Shown: one piece after another, positions 1,150 to 28,442 of the stretch
Position numbering within the stretch: position 1 is the stretch's first letter
Layout: the number at the start of each line of letters is the position of its first letter
Assembly: GCF_004010195.1 (NCBI RefSeq)
Contig: NC_057746.1
Coordinates: 16,936,820 to 16,972,020 of the forward strand
DNA: 35,201 bases
Direction of reading: 5' to 3'
Source: Chiloscyllium plagiosum
Lineage: Eukaryota
Translations under genes and position numbers: made by a program
The notes under the pieces: generated by a model
What the model saw: only the letters and a program-made list of their open reading frames with translations
Database searches by the model: none
Told to the model about the DNA's origin: nothing

Positions 1150-1990
1150 ATCTATCCTTCCATTAACACCAACAGAAGAATTCTCCCAAATGTGGAAGAC
1201 TTCCCCTACCTGGGAGGCTACATCTCATCTAAGACTGACATCAGTGCTGAGATTCAACATCCCATCCAACCTCTGAGGGCTATCTTCCAATTCCTAAGGA
1301 TGAGAGTCTTTGATGACCAGGATATCAGTGCTGATACCTGGTTCCTCATATATAAAGGAGAAAGTGAGGACTGCCGATACTGGAGATCAGAGCTGAAAAA
1401 TGTGTTGCTGGAAAAGCGCAGCAGGTCAGGCAGCATCAAAGGAACAGGAGAATCGACATTTCGGGCATAAGCCCTTCTTCAGGATTGATTCCTGAAGAAG
1501 GGCTTATGCCCAAAACGTCAATTCTCCTGCTCCTTTGATGCTGCCTGACTTGCTGCGCTTTCCCAGCAACACATTTTTTCAGCTCCTCATATATAAGGCA
1601 GGCATTCTACTTTTCCACATGACTCCAAAACTTTGGACTATATACAGATCACACCTCAAAAACACTTGACAAATCCCATCAAGATTGTTCAAGACAGATA
1701 CTCTGCATCAACTGGGAGCACAAATGTGCTAATATCAACATCCTATTGTGCCAGCATCGAGGCCACTATAATCTGAAACCAACTCTGGCATCCTAAGCAC
1801 ATGGCCAGGCAGAGTTCCTATTGCCAAAAGAAATCATCATCACCCACTTAAGAATGCTTTTGAATAAGAGGCAAAGGAAGCATTTCAAAGACACGCTGAA
1901 GTCTTTGCTCAAGAAATGCAACATAGATATCTTTGCATTGAAGCCCCTCACTCAGAAAAAACGATTTTGGAGGAAACTAACTTTGGAGTG
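1150..1990 (+). mobile_element. RTE-clade LINE RT C-terminal remnant, split by the 1356-1583 insertion
   Basis: FPYLGGYISSKTDISAEIQH..LRMRVFDDQDI..IYK, continuing ..KTWTIYRSHLK after the insert. Confidence 0.65.
1356..1583. mobile_element. Palindromic Penelope-terminus mini-element with two opposed hammerhead-like cores
   Basis: Inverted arms of about 94 bp (1391-1484 / 1490-1584); direct flanking repeat TCCTCATATATAA (1343-1355, 1584-1596). Confidence 0.85.
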
Positions 1991-2809
1991 ATTTGTACCA
2001 GGAGCAGACAGGTGGGACTAGTCTAGTTTGGGATTAAGGTTGGTGTGGACTAGTTGGACCAAAGGGTCTGTTTCCTTGCTGTATGACTCTACGAGTGTGA
2101 AGGAATAAAATTCTTTGAGAACATGTGGTGACAAGAGGAAGTATGGAAAAGAAACTGGGGAAAGGGATGCCAATGATTTCAAGACTAAGGAACAATTCCA
2201 GCTCCCAGAAACTCCTGTCAAACGTGCTTTTAGAGATGGAACCCTAGGATTGGAATCATCAGCCATATAAGGACCCACAGAATCAATGACCTGGAGTATC
2301 CTAGGTGGACAATCATATTGATTAGTGAAGGGTCACCAACATCAGGATTGCTTTTATAACTTTCACAAACAGAGACCCCAATTTCTGACAGATATAACTT
2401 AAATTCCTGAATATATTCTAAAAATAACTAGATTTTCCAAAGAGCCAAAAGGAACAGGCTCAAGGGGATAAATATTCTCTTCCAATTCTTATGGCCTTTT
2501 CTTTAATTCATTCAAGGATTGTGGTATATTTGGATAGTGAGCTCTTACTGTCTATCCTTAATTGTCCAGAGGGCAGTTATAATGCATGCCCATTCTCGTG
2601 GGTCTAGAGTCACATGCAGGTGAGACCAGGAATAGGCATCAGTCTTCCTTCCCTAAAAAGAACATTACTGAATAAGATGGATACTATGACAATATTCTTC
2701 TACATTCTTCATTCCTACTGACTTCCTTTCCTCACTCTCCAACTAAATGACGCTGTCTTTCTATTCCACCCTATTCTCCAGATCTCTGCGTGACACTCCT
2801 TCCTTAATC

Positions 2810-5220
2810 GAGAGTGTTTTGCTGGAAAAGAACATGAGGTCAGGCAACATCCGAGGAGAATCGACATTTCGGTCATAAGCCCTTCATTGGGACTGAGGCT
2901 TTTGGGCTGGGGCTGAGAGATAAATGGAAGGGGCATTGGGTTTGGTGGGGAAAGATAGCTGAGAAAGCGATAGGTGGATGAAGATGAGAGAGAAGATGAT
3001 AAGTCAGAGGGGGGAGTGGAACGGATGGATGGGAAAGGTGACGGAGAGGTTAGGAGGGCGGTGCTGAGTTGGAGGCTTGGGACTGGGAAAATGTGGGGGG
3101 GTGGGGGGAAAGAAATGAGGAAGCTGTTGAAATCCACATTTATCCCATATGGTTGCAGGGTCCCAAGGCAGATTATAAGGCGTTCTTCCTCCAGGCATTG
3201 GGTGGTAATGTTTTGGCGGTAGAGGCGGCCCAGGACCTGCATGTCCTTAACTCCCCCTCCCATTCTGTTGAAGTGTTCAGTCACAGGGCAGTAGGGTTGG
3301 CTGGTGTGGGTGTCCCAGTGAAGTTCTCTGAAACAATCCACAAGAAGGCGTCCTGTCCTCCCAATGTGGAAGAGATCATATGAGGTGCAACGGATGCAGT
3401 AGATGACATTGGTAGAGGTACAGGTAAATTTCTGATGGATGTGGAAGGATCTCTTGGGACCTTGGAGGAAGGTGAGGGGAGTGGTGTGGGCATAGGTTTT
3501 GCACTTCCTGCGGTGGCAGGGAAAGGTGCGGGCTTGTGTGGTGTGTGTCCCTGACGAGGAAGTCGCAGAGGGAATGGTCTCTCCGGAATGCTGATAGGGG
3601 TGGGAGGGAAACATGTCTTTTGTGGTGGGGTCCATTTGTAGGTGGCGGAAATGGTGGAGGATGATGCAATGTATGCAGAGGTTAGTAGGGTGGAAGGTGA
3701 GGACCGGTGGCGGACGAGGGAGTTCTGTCTTGTTGCATTGGGAGCAGTGGGGTTCAAGGGCAGTGGTGCATGAAGTACAGAAGATGCACTAGAGGGCATC
3801 ATCAACCACATGGGAAGGGAAGTTGCGATTTTGGAAGAAGGAGGCTATCTGGGACTTTCACAGGTGGAATTGGTCATCCTGGGAACAAATGCGGCAGAGG
3901 TGGAGGAATTGGGAATAAGGAATGGCGTTTTTACAGGAGGGAGGATGGGAGTTGATGGACTTGTAGTAGATACCTGTAGTTAGTCGGTCACCGGAGATGA
4001 TAATGCAGAGGTCCAGGAGGGGAGGGAGGTGTACGAGATGATCCAGATGAATTTGAGGTCGGGGTGGAAGGTGTTGGTAAAGTTCCCAACGTCCTTCTGG
4101 GAGCATGAGGTGGCACCGATACAGTCATCGATACAGCAGAGGAACAGGTTGGGGGTGGTGCTGGTGTAACTGCATAAGATGGACTGTTCCACATACCTGA
4201 CAAACAGGCAGGAGTAGCTGGGTCCCATGCAGGTACCCACGGCTACCCCTTTGGGTTGAAGAATGTGGGAGGATTGCAAGGAAAGGTTGTTGAGGGTGAG
4301 AACCAGTTCAGCCAGGCAGATGAGGGTTTTGGTGGAAGGGTACTGGTTGGGACGGAGTGAGAGGAAGAAACGGAGTGCTTGGGAGACCTTCATTGTGGCA
4401 GATCGATGTGTATAAGGACTGGATGTCCATGGTGAAGATGAGGCGTCGGGGGCTGGGGAAACGGAAATCATGGAGGAGATGAAGTGCATGGGAGGTGTCA
4501 CGAACATAGGTGGGGAGTCCCTGGACTAAGAGAGACAGATCAGTGTCGAGGAAGGAAGAGATGAGTTAATTGGAACAGGCGCAGGCTGAGACAGTGGGTC
4601 GACCGAGAAAGTCAGGTTTGTGAATTTTCGGTAGAAAGTAGATTGGGTAGTGCTGGATTCACACACAATGCGATTGGAGGCTGTGAATGGGAGATCCTCA
4701 GAGGTGATGAGGTTGTGGATGGCCTGGGAGATGATGTTTTGGTGATGGGACATGATCAAGGGGACAGTAGGAGGAAGTGTCTGCGAATTGGCACCTGGCT
4801 TCAGCGGTGTAGAGATCGGTCCGCCACACTACTACTGTGCTGACCCCCCCCCCCCCCTCCCTTGTCTGCAGGTTTGATGTGGAGGTTGGGATTGGAGCGG
4901 AGGGAGTGGAGGGCTGCGCATTATGAGAGTGAGTGGTTGGAGTGGGTGAGGGCGGTGGACACATTGAGGCTGTTGATGTCACAGCGGCAGTTTGTAATGA
5001 AGAGGTCAAGAGTGGGTAACAGGCCAGCATGGGGTGTCCAGGTGGATAGTTGTGTGTTGGAAGTGGGAGAAGAGATCCTCAGTGGGTGGGCAGGTGTCTT
5101 GGTTGAAAGTGTGGGCATGGGAGTGGCGGAAGAAATGTTCAAGGTCACACCATGTGTTGAACTCATTAATCTGGGTGCGTAGATGGATGAAAATGAAGCC
5201 TTTGCTGTAGACTAAATGTT
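2810..5220 (-). mobile_element. Penelope-like retroelement (RT + GIY-YIG endonuclease), degenerate
   Basis: RT motifs LAELVLTLNN, GVAVGTCMGPSY and CIDDCIG; GIY-YIG-type FTCTSTNVIYCIRC..HIGRTGR; many frameshifts. The 3' terminus has a decayed hammerhead-like motif at about 2859-2895. Confidence 0.9.
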
Positions 5221-6411
5221 CGTTCTTTAATTACTTAAATGGGGTTCATTGTCTGTTCAAATTGACATCTTTTGTTTTTAGATATTGGCCAGGATCTCAA
5301 GCATGGCTCAAGTGTTCTTATGGTTTCTGGAGTCTCGCTGAGGTGTTCCAGGTCCAGCAACAGTGACACCAATGCCCCAGGACTCCCCAGCTCGGCAACA
5401 TCAGAGGAATCCCTGCTCCAGGTTCACAAATCATTTCACTATTTCTATAGTCTGGCTGTTATAATTAGCTAGCATGGCAAGAAGACAGTTTGAGACTTAC
5501 ACAACAGACATTTTAAAGTCAGTTTCTTAAATGTGAAACCAGCTAAAATGATTCGTGAGCCTCGATCATGAAGCAATTTCAAAATAAGGAATTAATTAAT
5601 ATGAATTAGCAATGACGAGGCATGTAACCTATAGTAAAGTCATGATATCTTTTAATAATATATTATTGTAAATATACATTGAGTTATTACTCCACAAATG
5701 GCAAATCTCAAGCAAACAATAAGAGCTGCTGAGCTGAAGCTTTCCTACTTGGCCTTAGTATTCAATACACTCAGTAAATTGGGTAAAGAATTGGACATTA
5801 TTAGGCATTATTGAAATACACTACCACAATATACAAATGTTTTGATGAGTCCTGGTGTACTACTGAAGCGGAAATTGTTCACAAACTTGGGAAAGTATCT
5901 TGTGTGTCAGTCAGCAATCATAATTAAACAGACAGTTACGTTAGTCAATGAGTGTACAACAGTTAGGCTGCTTGGAGAGAATGAACTAAGAGTTAATGAT
6001 AGAGAATTAAATTGAGAAGAATTTGTTCACCTGTTACCAAGTGCTGGGTAAAGGAGAAAACTTCACAATTCACGTCAATCTCATCACGTGACATTGTTAA
6101 AGGTATAATTCTCAAGTTAACTTTTTTATCTTTTCCTTTCACTTAAAAACATCTCTATCATTTTAACATTTTTACTTTTCTCTCTTTAAATTGTCAATAT
6201 ATCTTTTGAATTTTGCAAATAAAGATTTTGTTCTCGCCTTATGGTTGTCTCGTACTAACCTAAATTTAAGACAATGGAGTTACTGACGTTTAAAACCTGA
6301 AATTAGATAAATATTACCCCATAAACCATTCTGATAGTAACATTGATCAAAGGTTAAACTCCCAGTTCTCAACCTGGCTCTGCCCCGGCCTCTCACACCC
6401 CCATTACTCAC

Positions 6412-6460
6412 CTGCAGAGAGCTCTCCCCACAGAAGCCCCAGCACTATCAGTCCAATCAT
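6412..6460 (-). pseudogene. MHC class I copy A, leader exon (no alpha1 exon visible downstream)
   Basis: Encodes the same MIGLIVLGLLWGELSA, donor G|GTGAGT. Intron 1 homology to copy B ends near 6050. Confidence 0.88.
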
Positions 6461-6542
6461 CGTGACTTCAGTTGACAGTCTGGGAGGAGAAATTAATTTC
6501 CAGCGGACTGTCTCAGCTGTGCCTTGGACTGATATTAAACTG

Positions 6543-6745
6543 ATATCGATTCTCCTGCTCCTCGGATTCTGCCTGGCCTGCTGTGCTTTCCCAGCACCAT
6601 ACTCTTGACTCTGATCTGCAGTTCTCACTTTCTCCTAATATTAACCCGTTCTGAAGAAGGGTCACTTGACCCAAAATGTTAACTCCGACACCTCTCCACA
6701 GATGCTGCCGAACCAGCTAAGCATTTTTGCAATTTCAGTATTAGT
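6543..6745 (+). mobile_element. Two nested Penelope-terminus fragments between promoter and ATG of copy A
   Basis: 6545-6637 matches the first subfamily tail; 6648-6745 has GTTCTGAAGAAGGGTCACTTGACCCAAAATGTTAAC of the second subfamily. Confidence 0.65.
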
Positions 6746-6769
6746 TCCTTTTCCTGTTCATTGACATAC

Positions 6770-6920
6770 CTTCACATTGATTGATCCCAAAATATCATCG
6801 GTCCAATTACAATAAAAAGACTCAGTGAATCATCAGGGTCCGGCAAAATAGAAAACAAATAGATTGCATAACCCCACCCAGGCTTGGGACCGAAGCAAGT
6901 AAACACTTCCACTCTCATTT
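6770..6920 (-). promoter_or_regulatory. Decayed paralogous class I promoter of copy A
   Basis: Aligns with 20600-20750; only the Y-box CCAAT (6803-6807) is intact. Confidence 0.65.
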
Positions 6921-7169
6921 CTAGTTCCTGGGAGAAGGAACTGAGCTGCAATTCACTTTCGGGACAGAAGCCATTCAGCCCCTTGATGCTGCCTCACCAT
7001 CCAATGACAAGATTGCTGAGCTTAACTCCAGTTTCATCTCCTTCAATCACCATTAGTCAAACCTTAGTCTCCAAAACTGTAATTATCCCTGGTATGGAGG
7101 TGCTTTTGCGTTATCCCCATTCACAGACCTTTAGTGGAGATATGTTTTAATGGATCCTTTGTGTGAGGG

Positions 7170-7470
7170 AAGGTGGTGATGTCACTGGGCTGAGAATCCC
7201 CCCAGCTAATGATCTGGGACATGGGTTGACATCCCCCATGGCAGACAGTGAGGTTTGAATTCAATAAAAAAAATCTAGAACTGAAAGCTAGTCTCGTGGT
7301 GGACATGTACCCAATGGTGATACATGTAAAACCATCTAGTTCACTCACAGGAAATCTTCTGTTTTTATCTGGTCTGGGCCTACATGTGACTCCAGACCCA
7401 CAGCAATTGCACTCTGGTCAAATAGGGCTGGACAATAAATAATACCTAGTCAATGATGTCCACATTCAAT
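7170..7470 (+). mobile_element. tRNA-derived SINE-like element
   Basis: A-box-like gtggtgatgtcactgg and B-box-like gggttgacatccc; paralog at 21015-21255. Confidence 0.55.
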
Positions 7471-7479
7471 GAACAAAAT

Positions 7480-9010
7480 AAAGTCTTCTGTGTGGAAATG
7501 GGCTTCCTGAGACTGCCCCAAAATCCTGCCAAACCTGACATCAAGGTACAGTTAAACTCGAGGAGTATAAAGCAAAGACTGTGGGCCCTAACAAATTCTT
7601 TGGAGTTATGTGCCCCCAGTGAAACTGTTCAGGTACAGCAATCTCAGACACAGGACAGCACTGCTGGAGTTCATCACGAAACATTGTTAGGTCCAAAAAT
7701 TTTCAACTCCTTCATCAATGACCTTCTCCTCATCCTAAAGTCAGAAGTTGAGACGTTCACTGATGGTTGTATATTTTTCAGTCTGAGACCTCAGATGCTG
7801 AATCAGTTCATGTATTTATGTAACAAGACTCATGATACAACATTGGGCTAGCAGGTGGGAAATCACATTCATGCCAAAAAAGTACCAGGCAATGACCATC
7901 TTCAACAAGACTGAATCTCAACATCTTTCATTCATCTCACCACTTTGACATTCACAGGCTTTATCATCACTGAATATCCCACCATCCATATTAAGTTGTA
8001 TTCCACTGGCCAGGACCTGAATGCGACCAGTTTTTAATTTTTTTTAAATTTTAAAATGATTTTAACAGTCAGGAAGAGGGTGGGGTTTCTGCAGTAAGTA
8101 GTTCATCTCCTGGCTCCCCAAGGTGTGTTCACCATCAACAAGATGCTCATGGTGTTCAGAGGGAATGTGAGCTGTGAGCAGGATGCAGAGATATATCAGT
8201 GTATTTTAGACAAGTTGAATGAGTGGGCAAATGCATGGCAGATGTAATATAATGTAATATTCACCTTATGTTCTTCAGTAGTAAAAACAGGAAGGCAGAT
8301 TATTATTTGAATGGTGATATGTTGGGAAAAGGGAAGGTGCAACAAAAGCTGTACAACAGTCTCTGAAGGTAAACATGCAGGCGAGGCAGGCAATAAAGAA
8401 CAAAAATGGCATGTTGAGCTTCATAGTGAGAATGTTTGAGTGCAGGAGCAGGGACATCTTGCTGCAGTTGTACAGGCACTTGATGATACCACACTGAGAA
8501 TATTCTATACAGTTGTGGTCACATTATCAGAGGCAAGATATTCAGCTGACAGAGAGAGAGCAACAAACATTTATCATATCAACTCCCAGGAAAGCAGGAC
8601 TGATATATGAGAGAGACTGGATCGGTTAGGACTCTATGCACGAGAGTTTAACAGAATGAGGAGTGAGATCTCATAGAAACCCAGGACTAGACAGGGTAAA
8701 TGCAGGGAAAATCCCAAAGACCAAGGAGTCCAGACAATAGGTCACAGTCTAAGGATGTGCAGGAGGCCACTTCGGACTGAGTTGGGAAGAAATGTCTGCA
8801 TCCAGAGAGTGGTGAGCCTCTGCCACAATGTCATACTGAATATTTGGAGGAAAAAGTTAGATACAGTTCTTAGGGCTAAAGGAATCAATGTGGAGAAAAA
8901 ATGGAATTAGGGTCCTGAGTTGGACAATCAGCCATGATCATTTTGAATGGTGGAGCAGAGTTAAAAGGATGAATGACCTTCTCCTGTTCCTACTTCCTCT
9001 GTTTCTGTGA
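7480..9010 (+). mobile_element. Decayed CR1-type LINE fragments with 3' tail
   Basis: LGPKIFNSFINDL remnant; CR1 C-terminal homology 8150-8900; tail cagccatgatc..gaatggtggagcag..ctcctgttcct. Confidence 0.7.
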
Positions 9011-10520: not shown

Positions 10521-10524
10521 GCAG

Positions 10525-10920
10525 ATGATGTGGAGGTGCTGGAATTGGACTGGGGTGGACAAAGTTAAAAATCATACAACACCAGGTTATAGACCAGCAC
10601 ATTTATTTGGAAGCACTTTCGGAGTGTTGCCCTTTCATCAGGTAGCTGTGAGACAAGATACAGAATTTATAGCAAAAGATCACAGCATCATACAACTGAA
10701 ACAATATATTGAACAAACCAAGATTGCTGTTAAGTCTTTCATCTTTCAGCGTGGTTATAGGTTTTGGTTCATTAATATGAAAATTCCAGAATTTCTTTTA
10801 AGTCACATTCTCGAGATAACTTAAGATGATATGGATTGATTGCCTGCAGATTATATTTTGCTCCAAAAGTAAGCAACATGTCTGCAAAAACAATTCTGCA
10901 AATGCAAATTCACCTGATAG
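10525..10920 (-). mobile_element. Probable third Penelope-family terminal fragment
   Basis: Minus-strand CCTGATGAAAGGGCAACACTCCGAAAG hammerhead-like remnant at about 10611-10642. Confidence 0.5.
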
Positions 10921-10922
10921 CC

Positions 10923-10923
<1 letters not shown>

Positions 10924-11452: not shown

Positions 11453-13185
11453 AATAAACACCTCAGCAAAATCTCAGAGTTGGAGAGAGTGGGACAGAAA
11501 ATAGTGCAGCCTTGAACCCAAGACAGGAGTCTGGAATGCAGACCATGAGTACGCAGCTCTATTGAGACTTTGCACGAGGAAGGGTATAAATTGATAGGAG
11601 TGTGAACATGGAAACAGTTCAAGTCAGAAAGTGTGAGACTGTAGCATGGCCTGAGCAAGAGGTGGATTCATGACATCATAGTAAGGTAATGTTATCTTCC
11701 ATCAGTATCCAGAGATATTGCTGTGTAACAAGCTCATAGAAAAGGCCTCACTCAGTATTTAAGGTGCAGGAAAATTCAAATTGAGGTCTGAGATGATCCC
11801 ACTGATGAATGGCTGATGAAGATCATGTGTATGTGCTAAATTGACTGGCAGTATTGTGCAGGGGGCATGACCAATGGTATTGTGGAGACAAGGTTTCTGC
11901 TCAGGAAAAATAACCACACTGTCAAACATTAAAAATTGTTTCCCGAGATTTGGCCATCACCGGCAATGCCAGCATTTGTTGTCCAGAGGGCAGTTAAGAG
12001 CTAACTTGTTGTGTAGTGACATGTAGACCAGACTGTAATAATTTCTATCCTGGAAAGGCATTAGTGAACCAAATGGCTTTTTACAACAAACAATAAAGAT
12101 TACATTATCACCATTAAAGCTGTCTCTTCATTTTAAGTTTGACTGAATTCACATTTCACCATCTGCCAAAGAGGGATTTCAGTAATCTACAATTAACAAA
12201 ATGTAAACATTTCAATAAGCTAGATTGACAATTCAAATCACTCCTGAAATTAAGGATGAACAAATTAGAAGATCAATTCCAGCAATGGAAACCTGGCTTC
12301 CAGCAAGGACATTAGAGGATCCTGGGGAAGAGAAAAAAAGCTGTTACAGAGCACAGGAAACCCAGCAGACCCTGTAGCATCTCCCAAAAACACCAGCAGT
12401 GAAACACAAAAGTCCCATTCCCCAAACATCAGTAAAACCCCTCAGACCCACTCCCGAAAGACCAGCAAAACCCACAGGGACATGGAAGATGAGGAGGCCA
12501 TTTAGCCCCTCAATCCCGTTCCACTATTCAATCAGATCTTTGCTGGTGTGTTGCCTCAATCCATTTATGTATCTTCCATTTGTCTCTTAATTTTGAGTTT
12601 TATAGATTTTAATTCACTGAAGTTCATTTTGCATCAATTACCTTCTGAGAAAGAGAGAGTTCTAACCATTTCCCAGTCTGTATGTGTGGAAGTGTTTCCT
12701 AGTTTCACCCTCAATAGGTCTAACTTTAACTACACTGACATTCGAGTCTGAGACACCCCGCCAGTCAAAACAGTTCTCCTCTATCTCCACATGGTCTGGT
12801 CTCTTGACCTGCTCGGAGGCCTCCATCAGATCTAGACCCCACCCACCACACCGCAGTAATTCAGAATTCCGGGAGAGCAAAACTGAACTCCAGAAACAAA
12901 CTACAGCGAGAACTCTAGGAGTATTGACTCCTTTAAAAGGAGTTAATCAGCTGACAGGAAGCCCCATTCAGGATGAAAGGTTTCCAGATGTTTCTATAGC
13001 CCAAATCCCTCCTCTTGACAATATCTTGAGGCTGAGACCAGGATAAGGTCAGCCAACTGCAGAAGGACAGTCTGAAAGCTTAGTGTCAAACTGCATGAGC
13101 TGGTCTTTAGTGATTCACACAGGGAGAGAGAGAGTCTGAGCTCAGTGTCCACCCTCCAGATCATACAGCGAAAACCAGCCCCAAT

Positions 13186-13764: not shown

Positions 13765-14030
13765 AGAACAAAACAGAAATTGCTGGAGAATCTCAGCATG
13801 TCTGGCATCATCTGTGGAGAGAGAAAGCAGAATTAATGCCTTACATCCAGTGACCCCGACCCCCCCCACCGCCACCACCACCACCACACCTCTCCTCCGC
13901 GTGCACAAGCGTGGGAGAACTCCTAGAACAAAACATCACTGGACTCAAAATGTTAACTGTTTTTCTCTCCACAGCTGCTGCCAAACCTATTGAGTTTCTC
14001 CAGCAATTTTTTCTCTGTTTCAGATCTCTG
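13765..14030. mobile_element. Older palindromic Penelope-terminus element (second subfamily) in copy B intron 6
   Basis: Inverted arms aattgctggagaatctcag...ctgtggagaga / tctctccacag...tttctccagcaatt, similar to the terminus at 27270-27360. Confidence 0.65.
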
Positions 14031-14106
14031 CACTTGTGTTTGAAACAGAAAGAACAGCTTGTCATACACTAACACAGACGCTGAGATGTCTGAGTTATCA
14101 GCTTAC

Positions 14107-15030: not shown

Positions 15031-15123
15031 TTTTTACTTCAGTACAGTCTGGCCATACGCTTCCAGACTCTCCAATTCCCTGAAATGCCAGTGAGGAGCC
15101 ACCATTTTCTTACAAACTCCTAC

Positions 15124-16164: not shown

Positions 16165-17205
16165 GAAAATCCTGGGAACTATGGACCAGATATCTGTTGT
16201 AGGTAAATTACTTGAGAAGGTTCGGAGAGATAAAATACACATGCATTTGGAAAGACAGGGTTTGATTATAAATACTCTGCATGGCTTTGTGTGTAGGAGG
16301 CTTTGTGCATTCCTGAAGAAGAGCTCATGCCCGAAACGTCGATTCTCCTGCTCCTTGGATGCTGCCTGACCTGCTGTGCTTTTCCAGCAACACATTTTCA
16401 GCTTTGTGCGTAGGAGATCATACCTCACAAATTTCTTAGAATTCTTTGTTGAAGTGACCAGGAACATAATCTAAATGGATTTCAGTAAGGCCTTTAAAAA
16501 GGTTCCACATGGTAGGCTGACCTGGAAGGTTAGATCGCATGGAATTCAGGGGAAGCTGGCAAATTGGAGATACAATTGGCTTGATGCTAGGAAGCAGAGG
16601 GTAATAATGGAAGCATGTTTGTCGGACTGGAGGCCTGAGACTAATGGTGTGCCTGAGGGGTCAGTGCTGGGCCCATTGCTGTTTGTTATCAATATCAATG
16701 ATTTGGATGAGATACAAGGTATGATTAGTAAGTTTGCAGATGACACTGAAACGGGCAGTATTGTGGACAGTGAGGAAGGTTATCAAAAATTGCAGCAGGA
16801 CCTTGATCAGCTGGGGAAGTGGCAAGTGGAGTTTAATGCAGATAAGTGTGAGGTCTTGTGATTTGCAAAGTCAAATCAAGGTAGGGGTTTCAAGGTGAAT
16901 GGTAGGGCCTTAAGGACTATTGTGGAACAGAGAGACCTTGGAGTTCTGGTGCACAGTTCTCTGAAAGTGGAGTCAAAGGTTGCCAGAACAGTCTTCATCA
17001 GTCAGGGCATTGAGTATATTTGGGAAATTATGTTGCAGTTGCACAGGACGTTGGTAAGGCTGCACTTGGAGTATTGTATTTTGGTCACCTTGCTAATAGA
17101 AAGGATGTTATTAAACTAGAAAGAGTGCAGAAGGACGTTTCCATGATACAAGGGACTGAATTATGAGGAGTAGTTGGACAAGCTAGGATGTTTTTCTTTG
17201 GAGAC
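16165..17205 (+). mobile_element. CR1 LINE ORF2 RT fragment in copy B intron 4
   Basis: MDFSKAFKKVPH, GVPEGSVLGPLLF, FADDT; stops and frameshifts. Confidence 0.9.
16300..16400 (+). mobile_element. Single-arm Penelope-terminus mini-element inserted in CR1 RT
   Basis: Core CTGAAGAAGAGCTCATGCCCGAAACGTC at 16313-16340; flanking repeat GCTTTGTGYGTAGGAG (16284-16299, 16401-16416). Confidence 0.8.
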
Positions 17206-17681
17206 AATTGTTTTTGATCACCAGAATCAATGACTAATGTGATGTCGTAGAGACGACCAGGCTGTCCTGTGTATAAGTCTCCTCACGTTGGGATTTTGCA
17301 TCTCCTGTCTCCTATCACACAGGAGTGTCCAAAGCTCATCTCTGCTCTTTGTTAGAATATCTCAAAATGTTTCTCTCCTCCCTGGGACTACCTGGGATTC
17401 CTGTCTTGGTCTGTAGACTGCTTAGTGCTGCTGCATATAATAATTTAAATTCTAAAATTACATTTAAATGAAACCATATTCAGGGTGATGGGGAGAAGGC
17501 AGGAGAATAGCACTGAGTGGTAATGCTCAGCGAGACAAGTCAGGTCATGATGGGCTGAAGAGCCTTCTTTAGAACAATTCTGTGACTCCATAATTTCAAA
17601 GTCCAAATCAATATTGTCAATTGTGAAGGGAAGTGTTTCCTTGCAGAACACCACTTCCCACATTCTGACACTCTGACTAAC

Positions 17682-17855
17682 TAAGGAACAGGAGAATCAA
17701 CGTTTCGGGCATAAGCCCTTCTTCAGGAGTCCTGAAGAAGGGCTTATGCCCGAAACATCGATTCTCCTGTTCCTTGGATGCTTACTGACCTGCTGCGCTT
17801 TTCCAGCAACACATTTTCAGCTCTGATCTCCAGCATCTGCAGTCCTCACTTTCTC
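17682..17855. mobile_element. Palindromic Penelope-terminus mini-element in copy B intron 4
   Basis: Opposed CTGAAGAAGGGCTTATGCCCGAAAC cores; perfect 13-bp flanking repeat CACTCTGACTAAC (17669-17681, 17856-17868). Confidence 0.85.
17695..17727 (-). ncRNA. Minimal hammerhead ribozyme-like motif (best-preserved core)
   Basis: CUGAAGA-A-GGGC-UUAU-GCCC-GAAA-CG-UU; palindromic AACGUU in place of stem III, as in Penelope-associated minimal hammerheads. Activity untested. Confidence 0.6.
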
Positions 17856-18876
17856 CACTCTGACTAACCAACCCTTTTCCCCCAATCTCTGTTTCCTGTC
17901 TGCAAAGCAGCTAACAATCCATTTTACCACATTCCCACTGACCCCACATTCTCTAAACGTTTCTATTATGGGAGTATCTGATCAAATGCCTTTGAAAACT
18001 TTGCAACTGTACATCTGCAACATTACCACTGTGTACCCTCTGTTACTTCATGAAAAATATTCAATGGAGTTGGTCAAACACAATATTCTCCCTCAAAATT
18101 CATGCTGACTATTCATTGTTACACTGAGTTGGACAGAGATCATCAAGAAACAATGTTAAATAGACTGGGCTACAATTCCAGGATACACTGGATGCTGCCA
18201 CACTGAAATATCAGGATACATGGATCCTATTGGACATTATTATCCCTGGATTCACTGGACTGTCTCATAATAAAACATCTCAGGATCTGTTTCTGTATTT
18301 TTATTCACAGGGATATGGGTGTCAATGCCTGGGCCAGTCTTTACAGTCATTCCCTAGTTGCTCTACAGAAGGCGGTGGTGAGCTGCCTTCTTAGACCAAA
18401 TGCAGCTTATGTGCTGTAGATGGACCCAATATGTATTTCAGGATGCTGAGTAGCTTCGTGGGAAACTTGCAGGAGCTAGTGTTCCCAAGTATCTACTGCC
18501 CTTGTCCTTTGAGATTAAAGTGTCCATGGACTTGAAGAGTGCTCAGGAAATATGGTGAACTGAAAGGACATAGCAGGTTCTGTCACACGCATAGCAGATG
18601 ATATACTAATACTTTAATCCTTAATTATCCTGGATATTAAGATGCTGGGCAGCATTACACACCAGGATACACTGGGAGACTGTCCCTGATTCACTGCCTT
18701 AATTACTGTCCTCTACAATTGATGTGAGCACTGTGACACACTGACAGTTCATATGAACTTCCCTCTCTCTCTCTCTCTCTACCCTGGAGCATCCTGCTGA
18801 ACCAGCTCCGCTGATCCTCTCTCTTGTGATCCTGGTCTGAGTCTGGTTCCTCTCTAACAATGAGAATCAGTCTTAC

Positions 18877-19140
18877 CATAAATCACGACCAGCTTCTCCT
18901 CCAGTCCACTGTGCTCCACCTGACAGGAATACTCAGCCTGATCCTCCGGATCAAACTCTATCCATTTCCGGATCTGGTAGGTCATGTCGTGATTGGGTAA
19001 GATCCCAGTGGACAGGGTCTCATCGATCAACACTCCGTCCCTCCACAGAGTCACCTCGATGGCTTGTGGGTAAAACCCAGTGACGAGACAAGACAGCCGG
19101 TTAGAATCACCCAGACGGGCAAAGGACACATCAGGGGGAA
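18877..19140 (-). CDS. MHC class I copy B, exon 4 (alpha3 C1-set Ig domain)
   Basis: Acceptor tcccccag|, donor G|GTAAGA, 264 bp. Translation includes LSCLVTGFYPQAIEVTLW...LPNHDMTYQ...YSCQVEHSGL. Confidence 0.97.
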
Positions 19141-19237
19141 CTGGGGGAGAGAGGAAGAGGAGTCAGTGCAGGAACATGGAGAGAGAGACACACAGGCACC
19201 ATGAAATTTAACAACTATCACTCCCCTGCCCACTCAC

Positions 19238-19510
19238 CGACTCTCAGTTCCCTCTGTCCGTACTCCAGGTATTTCCTCAGCCACTCAATGCACTCCACCT
19301 CCAGGTAATGTTTCCACCTCTGCTTGCCCAACTCATTGTGGTCCCATCTGTTTTTGATGCTTTCCGCCCAGGGGACTGGGGTCACCCACACCATGTGGTC
19401 CTTATTCAAGCTGATCAAATCTTGCCCGTCCCATCCTCTGTGGTTGAACCCACTCACAGTCCCATCATCCCTCAGGTCACAGCCAGTCATCATCTGGTAA
19501 ATGTGGATCC
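19238..19510 (-). CDS. MHC class I copy B, exon 3 (alpha2 domain)
   Basis: Acceptor ttgacag|, donor G|GTGAGT, 273 bp. Translation (G)IHIYQMMTGCDL...GWDGQDLISLNKD...IKNRWD...HYLEVECIEWLRKYLEYGQRELRV has the C101/C164 pair. Confidence 0.97.
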
Positions 19511-19684
19511 CTGTCAATCAGAAACACAAGTTGCCGGTCAGAGACACAGTCTCACCTGGTGTCCCCTCCAACCACTCCCACAGTCAGTCTCTGGAACTCA
19601 GATTCACTCCTAATTTCTCCCATTCCCACACAAACTCCCCAAATGCACAGGAAGATGTCAGGATGTGGAACGGTGAGCACTCAC

Positions 19685-19945
19685 CCCCTGTCTGGTTGGT
19701 CCGTGACATAAATGTCAGAATATCGTGTTTGGCAAAGTCTTCTTGCTCCTGAGCAAGAAACCGTTTCCTATTCCAAGCCTCGGGTCCCTCGCTGTCCACC
19801 ATCCACTGTTCCCGGGGGATTAAATCCTTGCGATTGCTGTCATACATAACAAACTGGACCCCGTCCACATAACCAACAATCACAAACTCTGGGAAATTGG
19901 GAATCGAAGTCAAACCAGTGACAAAATACCGGAGAGAGTGAGTTT
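19685..19945 (-). CDS. MHC class I copy B, exon 2 (alpha1 domain)
   Basis: Acceptor tgtttcag|, donor G|GTGAGT, 261 bp. Translation (E)THSLRYFVTGLTSIPNFPEFVIVGYVDGVQFVMYDSN...EGPEAWNRK...MSRTNQTGG has the class I motifs HSLRYF, GYVD and the N86-Q-T sequon. Confidence 0.97.
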
Positions 19946-20371
19946 CTGAAACACAGAAAAATCAGGGCATGAATTCCTGAATCATGAATCATTTTGTTCA
20001 CCTTTTCTCCAGCACTGGAGAGAATTTCTCAATTCACTTCAGCTTCATCACGTGATGTTGTTAACTTTTTTCTCTTTTCCTTTTACTTGAAAAAAACGCC
20101 TATCAATTTTTCATTTTTACTTTTCACCCTGTAATGTTCAATAGATCTTTTGAATTTCGCAAATACAGATCTTTTCTTTCGCCTTATGGTAAAGTCTCGT
20201 ACGAACCTAAATCATTTAAAACAGTGGATTCACTGACGTTAAAACAAGAAACAGATAAATATTACCCCATAAACCATTCTGATGGTAACATGATCAAAGG
20301 TTAAAGCCCCAGTTCCCAGTCTGGCTCTGCCTCTCTCTCTCACACCCCGCCCCCCCCCCCCCATTACTAAC

Positions 20372-20420
20372 CTGCAGAGAGCTCTCCCCACAGAAGTCCC
20401 AGCACTATCAGTCCAATCAT
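20372..20420 (-). CDS. MHC class I heavy chain copy B, exon 1 (signal peptide MIGLIVLGLLWGELSA)
   Basis: ATG at 20420, 16 hydrophobic codons + 1 nt, donor G|GTTAGT; phase 1 joins the alpha1 exon in frame. Confidence 0.92.
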
Positions 20421-20604
20421 TGTGATTTCAGTCGACAGTCTGGGAGGAGAGATTATTTTCCACCGGACTGTCTCAGTCTGTGAGCTGTAATCGAGAGTGA
20501 TATTAAACTGTTCTGAAGAAGGGTCTTCAATATCTCTCCCGACAGATTTTTCAGCACTTTGTTTTAGTTCTTGTTACCGTTCCTCTTCACCGAGACACCT
20601 TCAC

Positions 20605-20750
20605 ACTGATTGGTCCCAAACTATCATCGATCCAATCACAATAAAAAGACTCAGTGAGTCAGCAGACTCCGGCAGAATAGACAACAAACAGGTTCCATAA
20701 CTCCGCCCAGGATTGGGAATTTCCAATCACCTAAACACTTCCACTTTCAT
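20605..20750 (-). promoter_or_regulatory. MHC class I proximal promoter of copy B
   Basis: In transcription order: GAAAGTGGAAGT IRF/Ets-like (20737-20749), kB GGGAATTTCC (20715-20724), GC box (20701-20708), S-like GGAACCT (20690-20696), X2-like TGACTCA (20655-20661), Y box ATTGG (20632-20636), CCAAT (20609-20613). The order resembles vertebrate class I promoters. Confidence 0.75.
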
Positions 20751-21014
20751 CTCCAGTTGCTGGAAGAATGAGCTGAGCTGCAAATCATTTTCGGGACAGA
20801 GATCATTCAGATGCTGCTACGCCACCCAATGAGATCATTGCTGATTTTTAACTCCAGTTTCATCTCCTTCAATCGCCAAAATATCAGACAAACCTCAGTC
20901 TCTAAAAATGCAATCATCTCTGATATGGAGCTACTTTTGAATTATCCCAACATTCACAGACCTTAAGAGGAGATATGTTTAGATGGATTCTTGGTGTGAG
21001 GGAAGATGGTGAGA

Positions 21015-21255
21015 TTGTGGTAATGTCACTGGGTTGGGAATCCCCCCAGCCAATGATCTAGGGACATGGGTTCACATCTCCTCATGGCAGACAGTGAGGT
21101 TTGAATTCAATAAAGAAACAATCTGGAACTGAAACCTAATCTCGTGGTGGACATGTACCCAATGGTGATAGACGTAAAACCACCTAGTTCATTCATGTCC
21201 TTTTCTGGAAGGAAGGAGAAATAGGGCTGGACAATAAATGCTGCCTAGATTGCAA
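21015..21255 (+). mobile_element. tRNA-derived SINE-like element (paralog)
   Basis: gtggtaatgtcactgg ... gggttcacatctc. Confidence 0.55.
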
Positions 21256-21259
21256 TAAA

Positions 21260-21905
21260 GTCTTCTGTGTGGAAACGGGCTTCCTGAGACTGCATCCAAA
21301 TCCTGCCAGACCTGGTGTACAGTTAAAGTTTAGGGGTATACAGCAAAGACTGTGGGCCCTAATAAATCCCTTGGCGTTATGTGCCCCCACTGAAACTGTT
21401 CAGGTACAGCAATCTCAGACACAGGACAGCACTGCTGGTGTTTCTCACAAAACGGTGTTGGGTCCAAAGATTTTCAACTCCTTCATTAATAACCTTCACT
21501 ACATCCTTAGGTCTGAAGTCAAGATGTTCACTGATGGTTGGATATTTTTCGGACGTGGTGGCGACACCTCAGACACTGAATCAGTCCATGATATAAGATA
21601 CATGATACAACATAGGGCTAGCAGGTGGGAAATCACATTCATGCCAAACAAGTAGCAGGCAATCTTCTGACCATCTTCAACAAGACTGAATCTCAACATC
21701 TTTCATTCGCCTCACCAATTTGACATTCAAAGGCTTTACTGTCACTGAATCTCCCACCATCAATATTGAGTTGTATTCCACTGACCAGAACCTGAATTCG
21801 ATCAGCAGTATTAACACTGTAGTTTTAATAGTTGGTGAGAGAGTGGGGATTCTGTAGTAAGTAGTTCACCTCCTGGCTCCCCAAGGCCTATTCACCATCA
21901 ACAAA
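21260..21905 (+). mobile_element. Decayed CR1-type LINE fragment, paralog of 7480-8140
   Basis: VLGPKIFNSFINNL; near-colinear with the copy A upstream region. Confidence 0.65.
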
Positions 21906-24862: not shown

Positions 24863-25384
24863 GGGCAGGCACAGGGTGCACAGTTACTGTCTTTGCTGCT
24901 CCACGCTCCCTTGTTGTATCCACCTGTGGCTATTCTCCTTGAGTCTACCAGGTGGCTCATGAACTGTGCACACAGTATCTGCAGCTTCAGTAGTGATTCT
25001 GTTACCTGCTGGAAGGGGAAGCCTTTTAGGAATGTCAGGCAGGATATTCTGATAGGAGAACAGTACAGAGATGGTGTCTTTCATTGTCAGGCTGGCATTT
25101 TTGCTCTGTAAATCATCTGTAAATCAGTGCAACAGTTGGTGTTACCACGAATGTCAGATGGTTGGCCTAGAAGCAGGATGATCACACTTCCACTGGAGTA
25201 AGCCAGTATTTGAGCACGTTTCCATCCAAGCTCTCAGCCAGTTCCTCCATCACAAAGGTGAATACACCTGCTGGGATTGTCCAGCCCATCACCGATAGAA
25301 AGGAATATCACACTCAATGACATTGAGGGTTTGGTCCATGAACAGTAATCTCCAGGGAATATCTCCAGGGAAAGTGAGGGTGGG

Positions 25385-27370
25385 ATTGGAACTGGAAGGG
25401 AAACATTGGTGAGTTGTGGGAGGGGATTAGAATAGGACTGGAACAAGGAATGTTCCAGCAATTCCTCTGATGTTTTACACCAGTTTCCAGTTTGCAGGCT
25501 CCAGCCGCCTCCTCTTTCCCATGGATGTGCAATCCCTTTACACGTCACCCCCGACCAAGATGGTCTCAGGGCTCTCCACTTCTTCCCGGAAAGCGCAGGC
25601 TTGAACTGTCCACTCACCTCCACTGTACTCTGCTTGGCCAGACTTGTCCTCACTTTCAACAGCTTCTCTTTTAACTCCTCTCCCTTTCTTCAGGTCAGAG
25701 GGGTGGCTGTGGGTCACCGCACATGTCCCAGTTCTTCCTGTCCCTTTGTGGGGTATGTGGAACATTCCTTGTTCCAGTCCTATTTTGGCTCCACCCACAA
25801 GTCTTTCTCTGATATATCAATGATATCATCGGTGCTGCTTCCCTCTCTCATCTGGAATTGTAAAGTTCATTGATTTCACTTCCAATGTAGCCCTGACTCC
25901 TCCCTTTCCTTCCTCGACATCTATTTCCATTTCTGACGATAGACTGTCCACTAATATCCATTATAAACCTACCGACACCCTCAGCTACCTGGGCTATCCC
26001 TCCTCGTACCCTGTCCATTCCGTTCTCTCAGTTCCTCCATCTCCATTGCATATGTTCTGGCGATGCCAACTTCGACAAGGGAGCCTCAGTAATGTCCATG
26101 TTAGTCTTCCACCAAGGATTCCCCAACACCGTCGTCAACAGGGCCCTCAACTGGGTCTGACCCATCTCCCGCACGTTTGCCCTCATCCCCTCCCACAACA
26201 ACGATAAGGTTCCCCTTGTCCTTACCCAACATCCCATCAGCATTGCCATCCAGAAGATCATCAGCCCCCACTTCCACCACCTCCAGCAAGATGCCACCAC
26301 CGGACACATATTCCCCTCCTCTCCCTTGCCTGTCTTCCACAGGGACCATTCCCTCTGGGACACCCTGGTCCACTCTTCCTTCATTCCCAACACACCCCCC
26401 ACAGCATCTTCGCCTGCAGGTGCTGAAGGTGTAACACCTGCCCATTTCCCGCCTCCCTTCTCAGTATCCAAGGGGCAAACACACTTTCCAGGTGAAGCAG
26501 GAGAAAGTGGGGACTGCAGATGCTGGAGATCAGAGTCGAGAGACTTGCACTGGAAAAGCACAACTGGTCAGGCAGCATCCGAGGAGCAGGCGAATCGGCA
26601 TTTCGAGCAGAAGCTCTTAATCTCCTGCTCCTCGGATACTGCCTGACTGGCTGGGCTTTTCCAGCACCACACTCTCGACTTCCATGTGAAGCAGAGCTTT
26701 ACCTGTATTTCACACAATTTAGTCTCCTGCATTCGCTGCTCGCAAAGTGGTCTCATCTACATTGGGAAAAATGAAGCATAACCTGGGTGACCGCTTTGCA
26801 GAACATTACGTTCTGCCCACAGAGAAGATCCTCAGCTTTGTTATGTGTCAGTTTAACACACCATCCCGTTCCCTGCCCAACACCTCTGTCTCGGGCCTGC
26901 TGCAGTCCTCCAGTGAAGCTCAGTGCAAGTTGGAAGAATATCAGCTCACTTTACACTTGGGCCCTGCAGCCATCCAGACTCAGTTTTGAGTTCAATAATT
27001 TTAGGGCCTGAACTGCCCATGTCCTAGCCCCCGACCACACACACCAGACGTTGTTACCACTGTCTGCCATTAAACACTACCTATGACTAGCCACTAACAG
27101 TCTCCATTAACCGCTATTTACCCTCCCAGCCATATCATTAAGAACTCCAACTGTTCTCTCTCTCTAGCCTCTATCCTCACCTATCATTTACTCCTTATCC
27201 CTCCCCCACCCTATCTTCTGCTTATAATCCAACTACCATGGGTTCTGAGGAAGGGTCTCTGGACCTGAAACATTAACTTTGATCTCTCTTCACAGATGCT
27301 GGCAGAGCTGCTGAGCTTTTCCAGCAACCTCTGCTTCTGATTTACAGCATCTGCAGTTCTTTCGATTTAT
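25385..27370 (+). mobile_element. Penelope-like retroelement, 5'-truncated and degenerate
   Basis: LVLTFNSFSFN..GVAVG..FVGYVEHSLFQSY; GIY-YIG remnant near 26700-26810 (CIRCSQSGLIYIG..LGDRFAEH); terminal hammerhead-like motif at 27242-27278. Confidence 0.88.
26501..26679. mobile_element. Palindromic Penelope-terminus mini-element nested in a Penelope element
   Basis: Inverted arms with the centre partly deleted; flanking repeat TTCCAKGTGAAGCAG (26486-26500, 26680-26694). Confidence 0.8.
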
Positions 27371-27749
27371 TCCGCATTGTCGAAGTTCTTTTAGTTTACA
27401 AAGCAGGGGGTGGTGTTTAAATGTCAGAGCATATATTGTTAGGGAGCAGACATGACTGACAAAGACTCTGTACAAAAGAGAAGTGTACGTACCTTGGTTT
27501 CAACAACTGACTTCAATTACCTTAATAACAAAGTCTTTGAATCAGGGACAGGCCATTTAGGACAGAGATGAGGAGAAACTTCTTCATTCAGAGGGTAGTG
27601 AATCTTTGGAATTCAGCATCACAGAGGGCTGTATATGTTTAAGACTAAGATTGATAGATTTTGACAGGGTATTATGACTGAGGCTAGAGGATTGCACTGT
27701 CAGCCTCTCTCTCTCATAGGAACGCCACAGCATTTCTTGAAGTGGTACA

Positions 27750-27905
27750 ACAGAGGAACCTCAATTAGCCGGCATTCGATTAACTGCATTTCAGATTATC
27801 TGAACAAGATCACAAGGTCTCGATGTTTGGCTCACTATGTTATCCGGCACTCGATTATCCGGCATTCGATTAACCGAACCGAAATACTCCCTGACCGTGT
27901 CCCTC
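27750..27905. mobile_element. Truncated copy of the same MITE family
   Basis: Shares aacctc..tttcagattatc.gaacaagatc.caaggtc..atactccc with 13186-13361. Confidence 0.55.
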
Positions 27906-28097
27906 TAAAATCGTGCCAATTGCATAACTCATCCACATTAGTTCGCAGTAAAACAAAATGTTCTGTCAGCCACATTTATTTCAAAAAGTATTGTTTTTTT
28001 ATAAGAAAACATGAGTCATTCAGCAAAGTCGTATTGCAAACACTGGTCACAAGTACTCATGTCTCAGAATCTGAGTACAAACAGGTTAAAGAGACAA

Positions 28098-28237
28098 AAA
28101 GAATCAAGAGTGTGGACCTGGGAAAGCACTGCCAATCAGGTCAGCATCCGAAGTGCAGGAGAAACGATGTTTTGGGCATAAGCCCTTCATCAGAAAGACT
28201 ATGATCTCCAGCATCTGCAGCCCTCACTTTCTCCACC
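28098..28237. mobile_element. Penelope-terminus mini-element (partially inverted)
   Basis: Minus-strand CTGATGAAGGGCTTATGCCCAAAAC core; flanking TTAAAGARACAA (28086-28097, 28238-28249). Confidence 0.7.
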
Positions 28238-28442
28238 TTAAAGAAACAACCATCCAAGATTCCCATATTCCTTAGATCTCAGGAAAAAACATCCCTGGAT
28301 TCCAAGATGGGTCACTGAGGCAACTGGGAAAGGGAAAGAAATACAGAGTTATAGAGTAAGGAAACAGCAGGGACAGCACCTCAACCACAAGCATCAATAA
28401 TAAGATGCATCAGACAGAATCTGAAACAGCAGCAAAAACAAA

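Follow-up and report, generated by a model that had tools for sequence, protein, structure and literature searches.

The insertion units of Penelope-like elements (PLEs) have already been published with an inverted pLTR, a tail and a TSD of 8-10 bp, according to the available passages of Arkhipova et al. 2013 (PMC3846280) and Craig et al. 2021 (PMC8557442). The available sections of Cervera and De la Pena 2014 (PMC4209133) report thousands of solo hammerhead motifs, and pairs on opposite strands that are ascribed to truncated PLEs. For Poseidon in vitro, the accessible text of Frangieh et al. 2024 (PMC11167929) describes that both target strands are cut and extended, and that hammerhead cleavage is dispensable. 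The pLTR of Penelope in D. virilis contains a promoter and start site (PMC2377424). We found no shark-specific description in the literature, and an entry in Dfam or Repbase is likely. A whale shark paper merely lists Penelope as present, and sharks are not named in the available parts of the main text of PMC4209133 or in its supplement file with matches.

Short inserts in a shark genomic window

We analysed a window, i.e. the whole stretch of 35,201 nucleotides from Chiloscyllium plagiosum. It contains six short inserts without an ORF (A-F, lengths of about 90-230 nt, Table 1). All insert arms are homologous to positions 2808-2896, the pLTR of a Penelope copy (P1), as an earlier note on this DNA had proposed, and those of inserts A-E have 74-95% identity to the reference arm 17732-17856. 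A stub consists of one pLTR, with or without a tail of 34 nt, often head-to-head with an inverted second copy. Four of the six are two-armed (A, C, D, E) and two single-armed (B, F), and no two copies share the same structure.

The two heads of insert A are separated by a single G at 1487, and the centre of insert C is also one nucleotide (17729). The outer end of the left arm of C lies inside the pLTR, at a match of 3-4 nt to the end of the target repeat. The host of insert A is presumably a decayed RTE-like LINE. Insert B lies in a CR1-like LINE, with a 9-nt partial target copy (16300-16308) after its left TSD. One set of diagnostic bases is common to D, E, F and P1, another to A, B and C. 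The arms of A have in common a lengthened T run and a substitution that occurs in two of nine arms, those of A itself. Insert F, the tail on one arm only and the old pair G were not in the earlier list.

With at most one mismatch, the flanking direct repeats are 15 nt in A, 16 in B, 16 in C, 15 in D and 12 in E, while none of 3000 random intervals of 100-230 nt reaches a repeat of at least 12 nt. Paralogous empty sites support three inserts (B, D, F). Compared with the CR1 copy at 32375-32590, B appears as a gap of 117 nt (insert plus one repeat), and F as a gap of 106 nt compared with the duplicated segment 20400-20560 (paralog site 20495-20524). Insert D breaks a Penelope ORF that is uninterrupted in the copy at 3330-3560. 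The repeats and the empty sites of B and D bear out the five TSD-flanked inserts of the earlier note. No paralog of the insert A site was found in the window; independent contigs from run X2 cross the right junction of A (1556-2087) and the 3' junction of P1 (2498-2858).

Table 1. Coordinates of the inserts, the Penelope copies and the hammerhead matches in the window.
Feature	Position	Strand	Description
Insert A	1356-1583		left TSD 1343..1355, 13 nt exact; second copy 1584-1596
A left arm	1357..1486	-	whole pLTR and 34-nt tail (tail ~1357-1390); core from 1482
A right arm	1488..1584	+	whole pLTR, tail-less; core at 1492, GAAA>AAAA
P1 3' pLTR	2808..2897	-	tail-less, core decayed
P1 body	2898..5222	-	3' UTR, broken RT and GIY-YIG ORF
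Insert F	6543..6635	+	single tailed arm, begins ~+26; decayed TSD 6530-6542 / 6636-6648
G	13766..14034		old head-to-head pair, second pLTR family (13766-13856 minus, 13926-14034 plus)
Insert B	16300-16400		left TSD 16284..16299, 16 nt, 1 mismatch; second copy 16401-16416
B sole arm	16309..16403	+	no tail; A-C mismatch disrupts stem II (pair probability 0.00-0.21)
Insert C	17682-17855		left TSD 17669..17681, 13 nt exact, 16 with 1 mismatch; second copy from 17856
C left arm	17683..17728	-	46 nt; core at 17726
C right arm	17730..17856	+	pLTR and tail (~17823-17856); core at 17732
P2	25458..27360	+	second Penelope copy, 5'-truncated
Insert D	26501-26679		inside P2; left TSD 26486..26500, 15 nt, 1 mismatch; second copy 26680-26694
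D left arm	26501..26619	-	tailed; begins past CUGA box; stem II G-C to A-U double change
D right arm	26620..26679	+	tail-less, no core; begins ~+30 to +32 from C of CUGA
P2 pLTR	27242-27360		different pLTR family; hammerhead-like core, then tail-like end
Insert E	28098-28237		left TSD 28086..28097, 12 nt, 1 mismatch; second copy 28238-28249
E left arm	28102..28196	-	tail-less; core at 28193, GAAA>AAAA
E right arm	28199..28234	+	tail only
Hammerhead matches, stub family	1482, 1492, 17726, 17732, 28193	-, +, -, +, -	descriptor scan
Hammerhead match, second family	6651	+	descriptor scan

The parent Penelope element

The pLTR of P1 has the same strand as the ORF and can be aligned with every arm; its core is decayed in P1 and intact in paralogous arms. 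P1 is 5'-truncated at about residue 200 of homologues with 880-930 aa, and it has a weak flanking repeat of 9 nt (2800-2808 / 5223-5231), a length also reached by 34 of 3000 random intervals. Its alignments with two shark RT/GIY-YIG proteins extend over 441 and about 440 residues; these proteins have weak RVT_1 and GIY-YIG Pfam matches, one of them above the cut-off. A Pfam search of P1's own fragments gave no match. According to the available text of PMC8557442, a Zn-finger-like Cys motif between RT and endonuclease defines the Neptune clade. The closest homologues have this motif, and a partly decayed form of it is found in P1, which we classify as Neptune-like, a putative clade label taken from the Cys motif only. 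The parent is an endonuclease-bearing Penelope-like element, as shown by the RT/GIY-YIG ORF and hammerhead pLTR of P1 together with the tail, the inverted pLTR and the TSD of the stubs.

Neither for G nor for P2 did we find a TSD above chance. When 153 PLE-related proteins were compared with the arms by tblastn, there was no evidence for an ORF start inside the pLTR; only short mixed-frame matches at protein ends were obtained, which we read as gene-model capture of the repeat.

The hammerhead core

A relaxed minimal-hammerhead descriptor gave six matches in the window and none in each of 20 dinucleotide shuffles, in agreement with the motif reported earlier. Judged by sequence, the cores fit the PLE minimal hammerhead, with CUGAnGA, an unpaired base, a G-C-closed stem II, GAAA, a palindromic stem III stub and UH. 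The earlier note placed a core on both strands; this holds for two of its five inserts (A and C) and fails for B with a single arm, D without a CUGA box in either arm, and E with one core and a tail-only second arm. G12 is lost in two of the five stub-family cores. For A and C, stem II has a predicted probability of 0.000 on either strand, compared with 0.93-0.98 in single arms, because the palindrome duplex buries the core.

In a covariation test with 12 related sequences, 81% of the stem I/II cells are paired, a level that is not significant, since 115 of 500 shuffles also reach it. Between the families the first stem I pair changes from C-G to U-A, and stem II has one double change. In a cofold of two heads, by a method that cannot model the core, the minimum-energy structure is not a dimeric hammerhead. 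An Rfam search with E up to 10 gave 17 matches, all below the gathering score and none to a hammerhead. Weak miRNA matches to insert C, also below the gathering score, were obtained in the Rfam search.

The motif scan found nothing in viral contigs and nothing in metagenome contigs; a single match in prokaryote genomes has a bacterial coding-like context, with the rest of the arm absent, and was taken as chance. RNA run X21, from a poly(A) single-cell library and read to about 2%, has both strands without pile-ups of starts or ends; this type of library cannot show the cleavage site. No RNA source is listed for 16200-17950.

Ends of the arms in the window and in public data

The outer ends of the arms lie at two discrete sites, whose spacing of 34 nt is the known PLE tail. 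Nine of the ten stub arms in the window terminate at one of these sites, five at tail-plus and four at tail-minus. The tail is found on five of the ten, never on both arms of one insert, and three of the four two-armed inserts carry one end of each type; the exception is C, where the end of the short arm matches neither site. At the head, 6/10 arms begin 2-4 nt upstream of CUGA and 2/10 (D right and F) no more than about 3 nt from the predicted cut, which lies inside the core at about +28. The proposal that the inserts are ribozyme-delimited is therefore not upheld. In this view the hammerhead travels with the pLTR as a passenger and has no part in where the inserts end.

In public contigs and reads, among the ends listed (24 of 3319), loose ends fall at the tail-plus end (587 in X2, 858 in X9, 512 in X21), at the tail-minus end (545, 698 and 191+361) and at the head, 2-4 nt ahead of CUGA (401, 635 and 221), and the flanks of these piled-up ends are mostly mixed. 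Some copies extend past the head into the 3' UTR, according to the X9 loose-end consensus. Eleven of the listed joints (15 of 742) lead into the head at 1487/1488 from varied positions in the other arm, several with filler letters; these positions are inexact aligner breakpoints and adjoin bases where copy A departs from most copies. Also among the joints listed, a recurrent C-like junction, 4 nt shorter than A, is found in 37 contigs of X2 and 38 of X9, and direct tandem tail-less units (joint 1484 to 1397) in 9 and 14 contigs.

In public shark contigs the stub occurs in very high abundance. The inverted arm varies in length both there and in the window, which supports the earlier suggestion that the inversion forms during insertion. 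In two DNA runs the summed depth of the arm is 65-68 times that of the best P1-body bin, a ratio that is inflated by divergence of the P1 body and is not a copy number.

Origin of the inserts

We hold with high confidence that the inserts are of PLE identity and that the inversion is made at insertion. The overall reading, in which a Neptune-like PLE with an endonuclease left them as short products of its insertion, is very probable, if slightly less firm, and we infer that the earlier note was right about mobilisation by PLE RT/GIY-YIG. The GIY-YIG domain would make a staggered cut of about 12-16 nt, and RT would be primed at either of two internal sites of the element RNA, tail-plus or tail-minus. 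Priming at both nicks would give two cDNAs, and joining of their 3' ends would make a palindrome that has the tail on just one side. The RNA may begin at the fixed 5' end, with run-off cDNA made from the 5' pLTR. This two-nick, run-off detail falls somewhat short of an even chance. More tentatively still, the commonest Neptune product in these sharks would be a strong-stop-like run-off cDNA, primed at the tail sites in the 5' pLTR of an RNA that begins 4 nt before the core, with palindromes made by double-nick priming. We found no PLE-focused literature that states such a run-off origin. At the head there is a weak initiator-like match, to a motif with a density of 12.4/kb in the window. A cap-derived extra G at 1487 is not claimed, as it could equally be the templated base of the left arm.

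Fold-back is possible but rather unlikely: the second arm would be self-primed on the first cDNA or on an antisense template, with the tail asymmetry produced by endonuclease resolution. It is suggested for head-to-head PLE junctions in the available text of PMC3846280 and in the tail passage of PMC8557442. The variants common to both arms of A are as compatible with fold-back copying, or with a later conversion, as with two priming events on a single RNA. However, the 1-nt centre of C with both heads near-complete, the tail-only second arm of E and the cut-back heads of D suit two independently primed cDNAs, and the filler letters at joints also speak against it.

At a similarly low probability, the head could be a truncation hot spot and not the transcript start: cDNA primed at the 3' pLTR would end at the hammerhead's 5' edge because of the structure of the RNA or its processing there (an RT stop, a splice acceptor or a protein block). 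An intron in D. virilis stops at the 5' boundary of helix I, in the part of PMC4209133 available. The second pLTR family also seems to begin just before CUGA in its solo copies (6645, 20510), and the X9 copies that run past the head agree with such a stop; however, P1 has no AG directly before the head. RT also reaches the 3' side of an RNA structure first, which counts against this explanation.

A self-propagating non-autonomous family, in which the stub or palindrome is transcribed, released by the hammerhead and re-inserted in trans by PLE enzymes, like a retrozyme or SINE, is improbable. The very high abundance and arm depth, the recurrent junction, for which a palindromic master could equally account, the direct tandem units and the pLTR origin proposed for retrozymes (bioRxiv 10.64898/2026.07.22.740005) are in its favour. 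However, the depth ratio is inflated as described, the ends are away from the cut site and no two window inserts share a structure. In addition, A and C lose stem II in the duplex, transcription reaches the antisense arm before the other, G12 is gone from two cores and 97% of the mapped RNA reads continue into other sequence. A single-arm source driven by the pLTR promoter may also be considered. Finally, a MITE-like TIR DNA transposon or an assembly artefact is extremely improbable: the inserts are short, ORF-less and have inverted repeats and TSDs, but the variable TSD length, the single-arm copies and above all the asymmetric tail and the homology of the arms to the PLE terminus rule out a MITE, and the crossed junctions and empty sites argue against an artefact.

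If the run-off origin is true, the stubs are a very large natural record of where the PLE transcript starts, how far the nicks are staggered and how both strands are primed, and an internal promoter could turn solo heads into SINE-like templates. As very many insertions of 90-230 nt have readable TSDs, tails and junctions, counting can separate twin priming, fold-back and run-off. Stub hairpins can also be mis-called as MITEs or microRNA precursors.

Comparison with known systems

In LINE-1 twin priming, synthesis on the RNA is also primed from a second nick, and an inversion arises during insertion, as proposed here; L1 inverts a different upstream segment, whereas the stubs hold the same segment twice. 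Non-LTR retrozymes (Cervera and De la Pena 2020, PMC7229834; bioRxiv 10.64898/2026.07.22.740005) are, like the stubs, non-coding, related to pLTRs, equipped with a type I hammerhead and found as monomers dispersed in vertebrate genomes. They are direct tandem repeats that give circular RNA, with ends set by self-cleavage, whereas the window inserts are solo or inverted (tandem in 0/6), with ends at the tail sites on one side and 2-4 nt ahead of CUGA on the other.

With the metazoan PLE minimal hammerheads, as described in the available text of PMC4209133, the cores share the lack of helix III, G10.1-C11.1, the palindromic ACGU at stem III and the unpaired base before stem II, a conserved trait that the earlier note had taken for a caveat. 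The spacing of the cores is 10 nt in A and 6 nt in C, with a stem II of 4 bp, compared with 100-700 bp for the opposite-strand pairs reported there. In Poseidon from Anolis carolinensis, two internal RT start sites define the tail, as proposed here; that clade differs from the Neptune-like element, and the accessible text of PMC11167929 derives no palindromic stubs or fixed 5' end.

The inverted pLTR, the tail, the TSD and the opposite-strand minimal hammerheads are all published, so the stubs are ordinary for PLEs, and the idea of a distinct palindromic non-autonomous family gives way to an architecture found in the available parts of PMC3846280, PMC8557442 and PMC4209133. The closest match is the insertion unit of endonuclease-bearing PLEs in the first two, which shares the head-to-head inverted pLTR, a tail of 30-40 nt at one end, the TSD, strong 5' truncation and solo pLTRs. 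In contrast to those units, as far as they are described there, the body is wholly missing in most copies here, the 5' ends lie 2-4 nt before the core, and the TSD is 12-16 nt rather than the 8-10 of rotifers (PMC3846280).

Origin and anatomy of the inserts

The five inserts described in the earlier note (A to E) lie where it placed them, and the window contains a sixth (F), see the table. With at most one mismatch allowed, A to E are flanked by direct repeats of 12-16 nt, as had been claimed, while flanking repeats of at least 12 nt occur in none of 3000 random intervals of similar size. At B, a gap of 117 nt is seen against another CR1-like copy (CR1 and RTE are what we take the LINEs of the window to be). 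At F, the gap against a duplicated segment is 106 nt, and D breaks into the ORF of P2, a second Penelope copy. For these three, the inserts open to an empty-site comparison, the flanking repeats are true duplications. Contigs of the public run X2 cross both the right junction of A and the 3' junction of the Penelope copy P1, so these are not assembly errors.

All arms, i.e. the pLTR-derived parts of the inserts, are pieces of one module of 125-130 nt, formed by a hammerhead core at the 5' end, a linker of about 60 nt and a final segment of 34 nt. The 3' end of P1 is this module without the final segment. The Penelope origin proposed earlier is supported, as every arm comes from the module that ends P1, an element with RT and GIY-YIG. 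The named relatives closest to the retroelement ORF of the window, at 55% and 47% identity, come from two carpet sharks. Ahead of the endonuclease lies a Cys motif that, by the definition in the available text of PMC8557442, suggests membership in the Neptune clade.

Among the outer ends of ten arms of stubs (short inserts without element body), five are past the 34-nt segment, four just before it, and one, in the left arm of C, is internal, where the arm briefly matches the target repeat. The two-armed inserts are oriented head to head, and in three out of four the 34-nt segment, which is the PLE tail, is present at one end but not at the other. Counted from the C of CUGA, six of ten arm starts fall between -2 and -4; the remaining four are near +7, +26, +31 and +90. 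One set of diagnostic bases is common to A, B and C, another to D, E, F and P1.

Features of the window and their coordinates. Repeat, direct repeat flanking the insert.
Feature	Position	Strand	Remark
Insert A	1356-1583		Repeat 15 nt
Insert B	16300-16400		Repeat 16 nt
Insert C	17682-17855		Repeat 16 nt
Insert D	26501-26679		Repeat 15 nt
Insert E	28098-28237		Repeat 12 nt
Insert F	6543-6635		
Penelope copy P1	2808-5222	minus	Broken RT + GIY-YIG element; truncated near residue 200 relative to homologues of 880-930 aa
Penelope copy P2	25458-27360	plus	
Second pLTR family	6645-6736		
Second pLTR family	13766-14034		Old inverted pair
Second pLTR family	20510-20545		
Second pLTR family	27242-27360		P2 terminus
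MHC class I exons	18854-19961	minus	MHC_I and C1-set domains
C1-set region repeat	34551-34948		86% identity
Old segmental duplication	6053-8141 and 20017-21904		77-79% identity; source of the empty site of F
Minisatellite	28424-29297		33-34-nt unit, open frame running through
Related short stretch	12388-12477		16 kb upstream of the minisatellite

D (26486-26694 with its flanking repeats) is the stub of one Penelope family within the ORF of another, just before the GIY-YIG motif. B has an additional partial target copy of 9 nt (16300-16308) between duplication and head, as though the target had served twice in priming or repair of the synthesis. The second pLTR family has a stem II of 5 bp and a U-A pair in stem I, versus C-G in the first family. 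Its solo copies seem to start about 3 nt upstream of CUGA, and F is inserted directly upstream of one copy. The LINE-like repeats of the window surround MHC class I exons, recognised by the Pfam domains MHC_I and C1-set. Together with transmembrane-like exons near 15110 and 30400, these exons form a class I cluster, of genes or of their remnants.

The hammerhead motif

A minimal hammerhead descriptor finds six sites in the window versus none in 20 shuffles; because the copies are related, this marks a repeat bearing the motif, not function. The Rfam search of the window returned no hammerhead match. The motif has the traits of the minimal PLE hammerhead in the available text of PMC4209133. These include the unpaired base, so the unpaired A, earlier noted as a caveat, is not a defect. 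G12 is absent from two of the five cores found in the first family. Covariation is not significant in 12 window sequences (115 of 500 shuffles score as high).

A core on both strands, which the earlier note had ascribed to the inserts, is found in A and C but not in the other listed ones. In A and C, stem II is predicted to form with a probability of 0.000 on either strand, versus 0.93-0.98 for single arms, and the antisense arm precedes the core in transcription; the palindromes are therefore poor ribozyme substrates. The predicted cut falls after +28, and the preferred arm starts are at -2 to -4. As the predicted cut site is not an insert boundary and the palindromes are poor substrates, the inserts cannot be described as ribozyme-delimited.

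Public sequencing runs

Positions 1300-3400 of the window were compared, at 80% likeness, with two sets of DNA contigs, a set of RNA reads (X21, poly(A) single cell) and one run of unknown kind. Loose ends (24 of 3319 listed) accumulate in three places, the tail-plus end (X2, 587; X9, 858; X21, 512), the tail-minus end (X2, 545; X9, 698; X21, 191 and 361) and the head (X2, 401; X9, 635; X21, 221). The flanks of these piles are mostly mixed (agreement 0.33-0.57), hence the three boundaries are common to many independent insertions. Summed depth of the arm is 65x and 68x that of the best bin of the P1 body in the two DNA sets; the P1 body is diverged and the ratio is no copy number, and we read it only as stubs being far more numerous than copies with body. 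Upstream of the head, the consensus from X9 is similar to the 3' UTR of P1, so some copies continue past the head into the body.

The joints (15 of 742 listed), with aligner breakpoints as their left coordinates, connect various positions of one arm with the other arm's fixed head, in some cases with filler letters. With the variable second arm, this agrees with the earlier suggestion that the inversion forms at insertion. Two observations point in the opposite direction: a junction shorter by 4 nt than that of A is recurrent (37 and 38 contigs), and tail-less units occur as tandems in direct orientation (9 and 14 contigs). The joint 1484 to 1397 is such a tandem, its head joined to the tail-minus end; these units are possible seeds of retrozyme-like dimers where the hammerhead could work. 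Several contigs have joints from 2072-2091 to 1356-1397, where pLTR ends meet the short repeat that forms the 3' terminus of the LINE at 2010-2091, which suggests insertion into or beside that microsatellite.

A possible mechanism

The data establish a PLE origin, target-site duplications, two outer ends, a preferred head and a variable second arm. According to the available text of PMC11167929, the purified protein of an anole PLE cuts and extends both target strands, the tail is set by two internal sites at which RT begins, a shortened template 5' end leads to shorter products, and hammerhead cleavage is dispensable. The pLTR promoter of D. virilis Penelope drives transcription (PMC2377424, accessible portion). 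In the inserts, a staggered cut of 12-16 nt would be followed by priming at one nick or both. Two cDNAs, one from each start site, would be joined through their 3' ends, comparable to LINE-1 twin priming. The head would be the 5' end of the RNA, reached after 94 or 128 nt from priming in the 5' pLTR.

The second arm might instead be made by fold-back synthesis, as proposed in the available part of PMC3846280, and the two arms of A do share a longer T run and a substitution seen in two of nine arms. For the head, the rival is a stop caused by structure at the edge of the hammerhead. The fixed head would most simply be the 5' end of the RNA; the initiator-like match there is weak, such motifs occurring at 12.4 per kb.

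Comparison with known elements

A literature search, with Dfam and Repbase outside it, found no published account of these shark stubs or of a run-off origin, and the accessible portions of PMC6155905 and PMC8455134 hold nothing specific to them. In the available text of a 2026 preprint (10.64898/2026.07.22.740005), non-LTR retrozymes are traced back to pLTRs, and one chondrichthyan is covered. Retrozymes are direct tandems in the accessible text of that preprint and of PMC7229834, whereas none of the six window inserts has this arrangement. In the available text of PMC4209133, thousands of solo minimal hammerheads are reported, and opposite-strand pairs 100-700 bp apart are attributed to truncated PLEs. 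An inverted pLTR with a one-sided tail and a target-site duplication is the typical Penelope structure in the accessible part of PMC3846280 and is depicted as general in that of PMC8557442. The inserts are real and abundant, and their kind is already known for PLEs.
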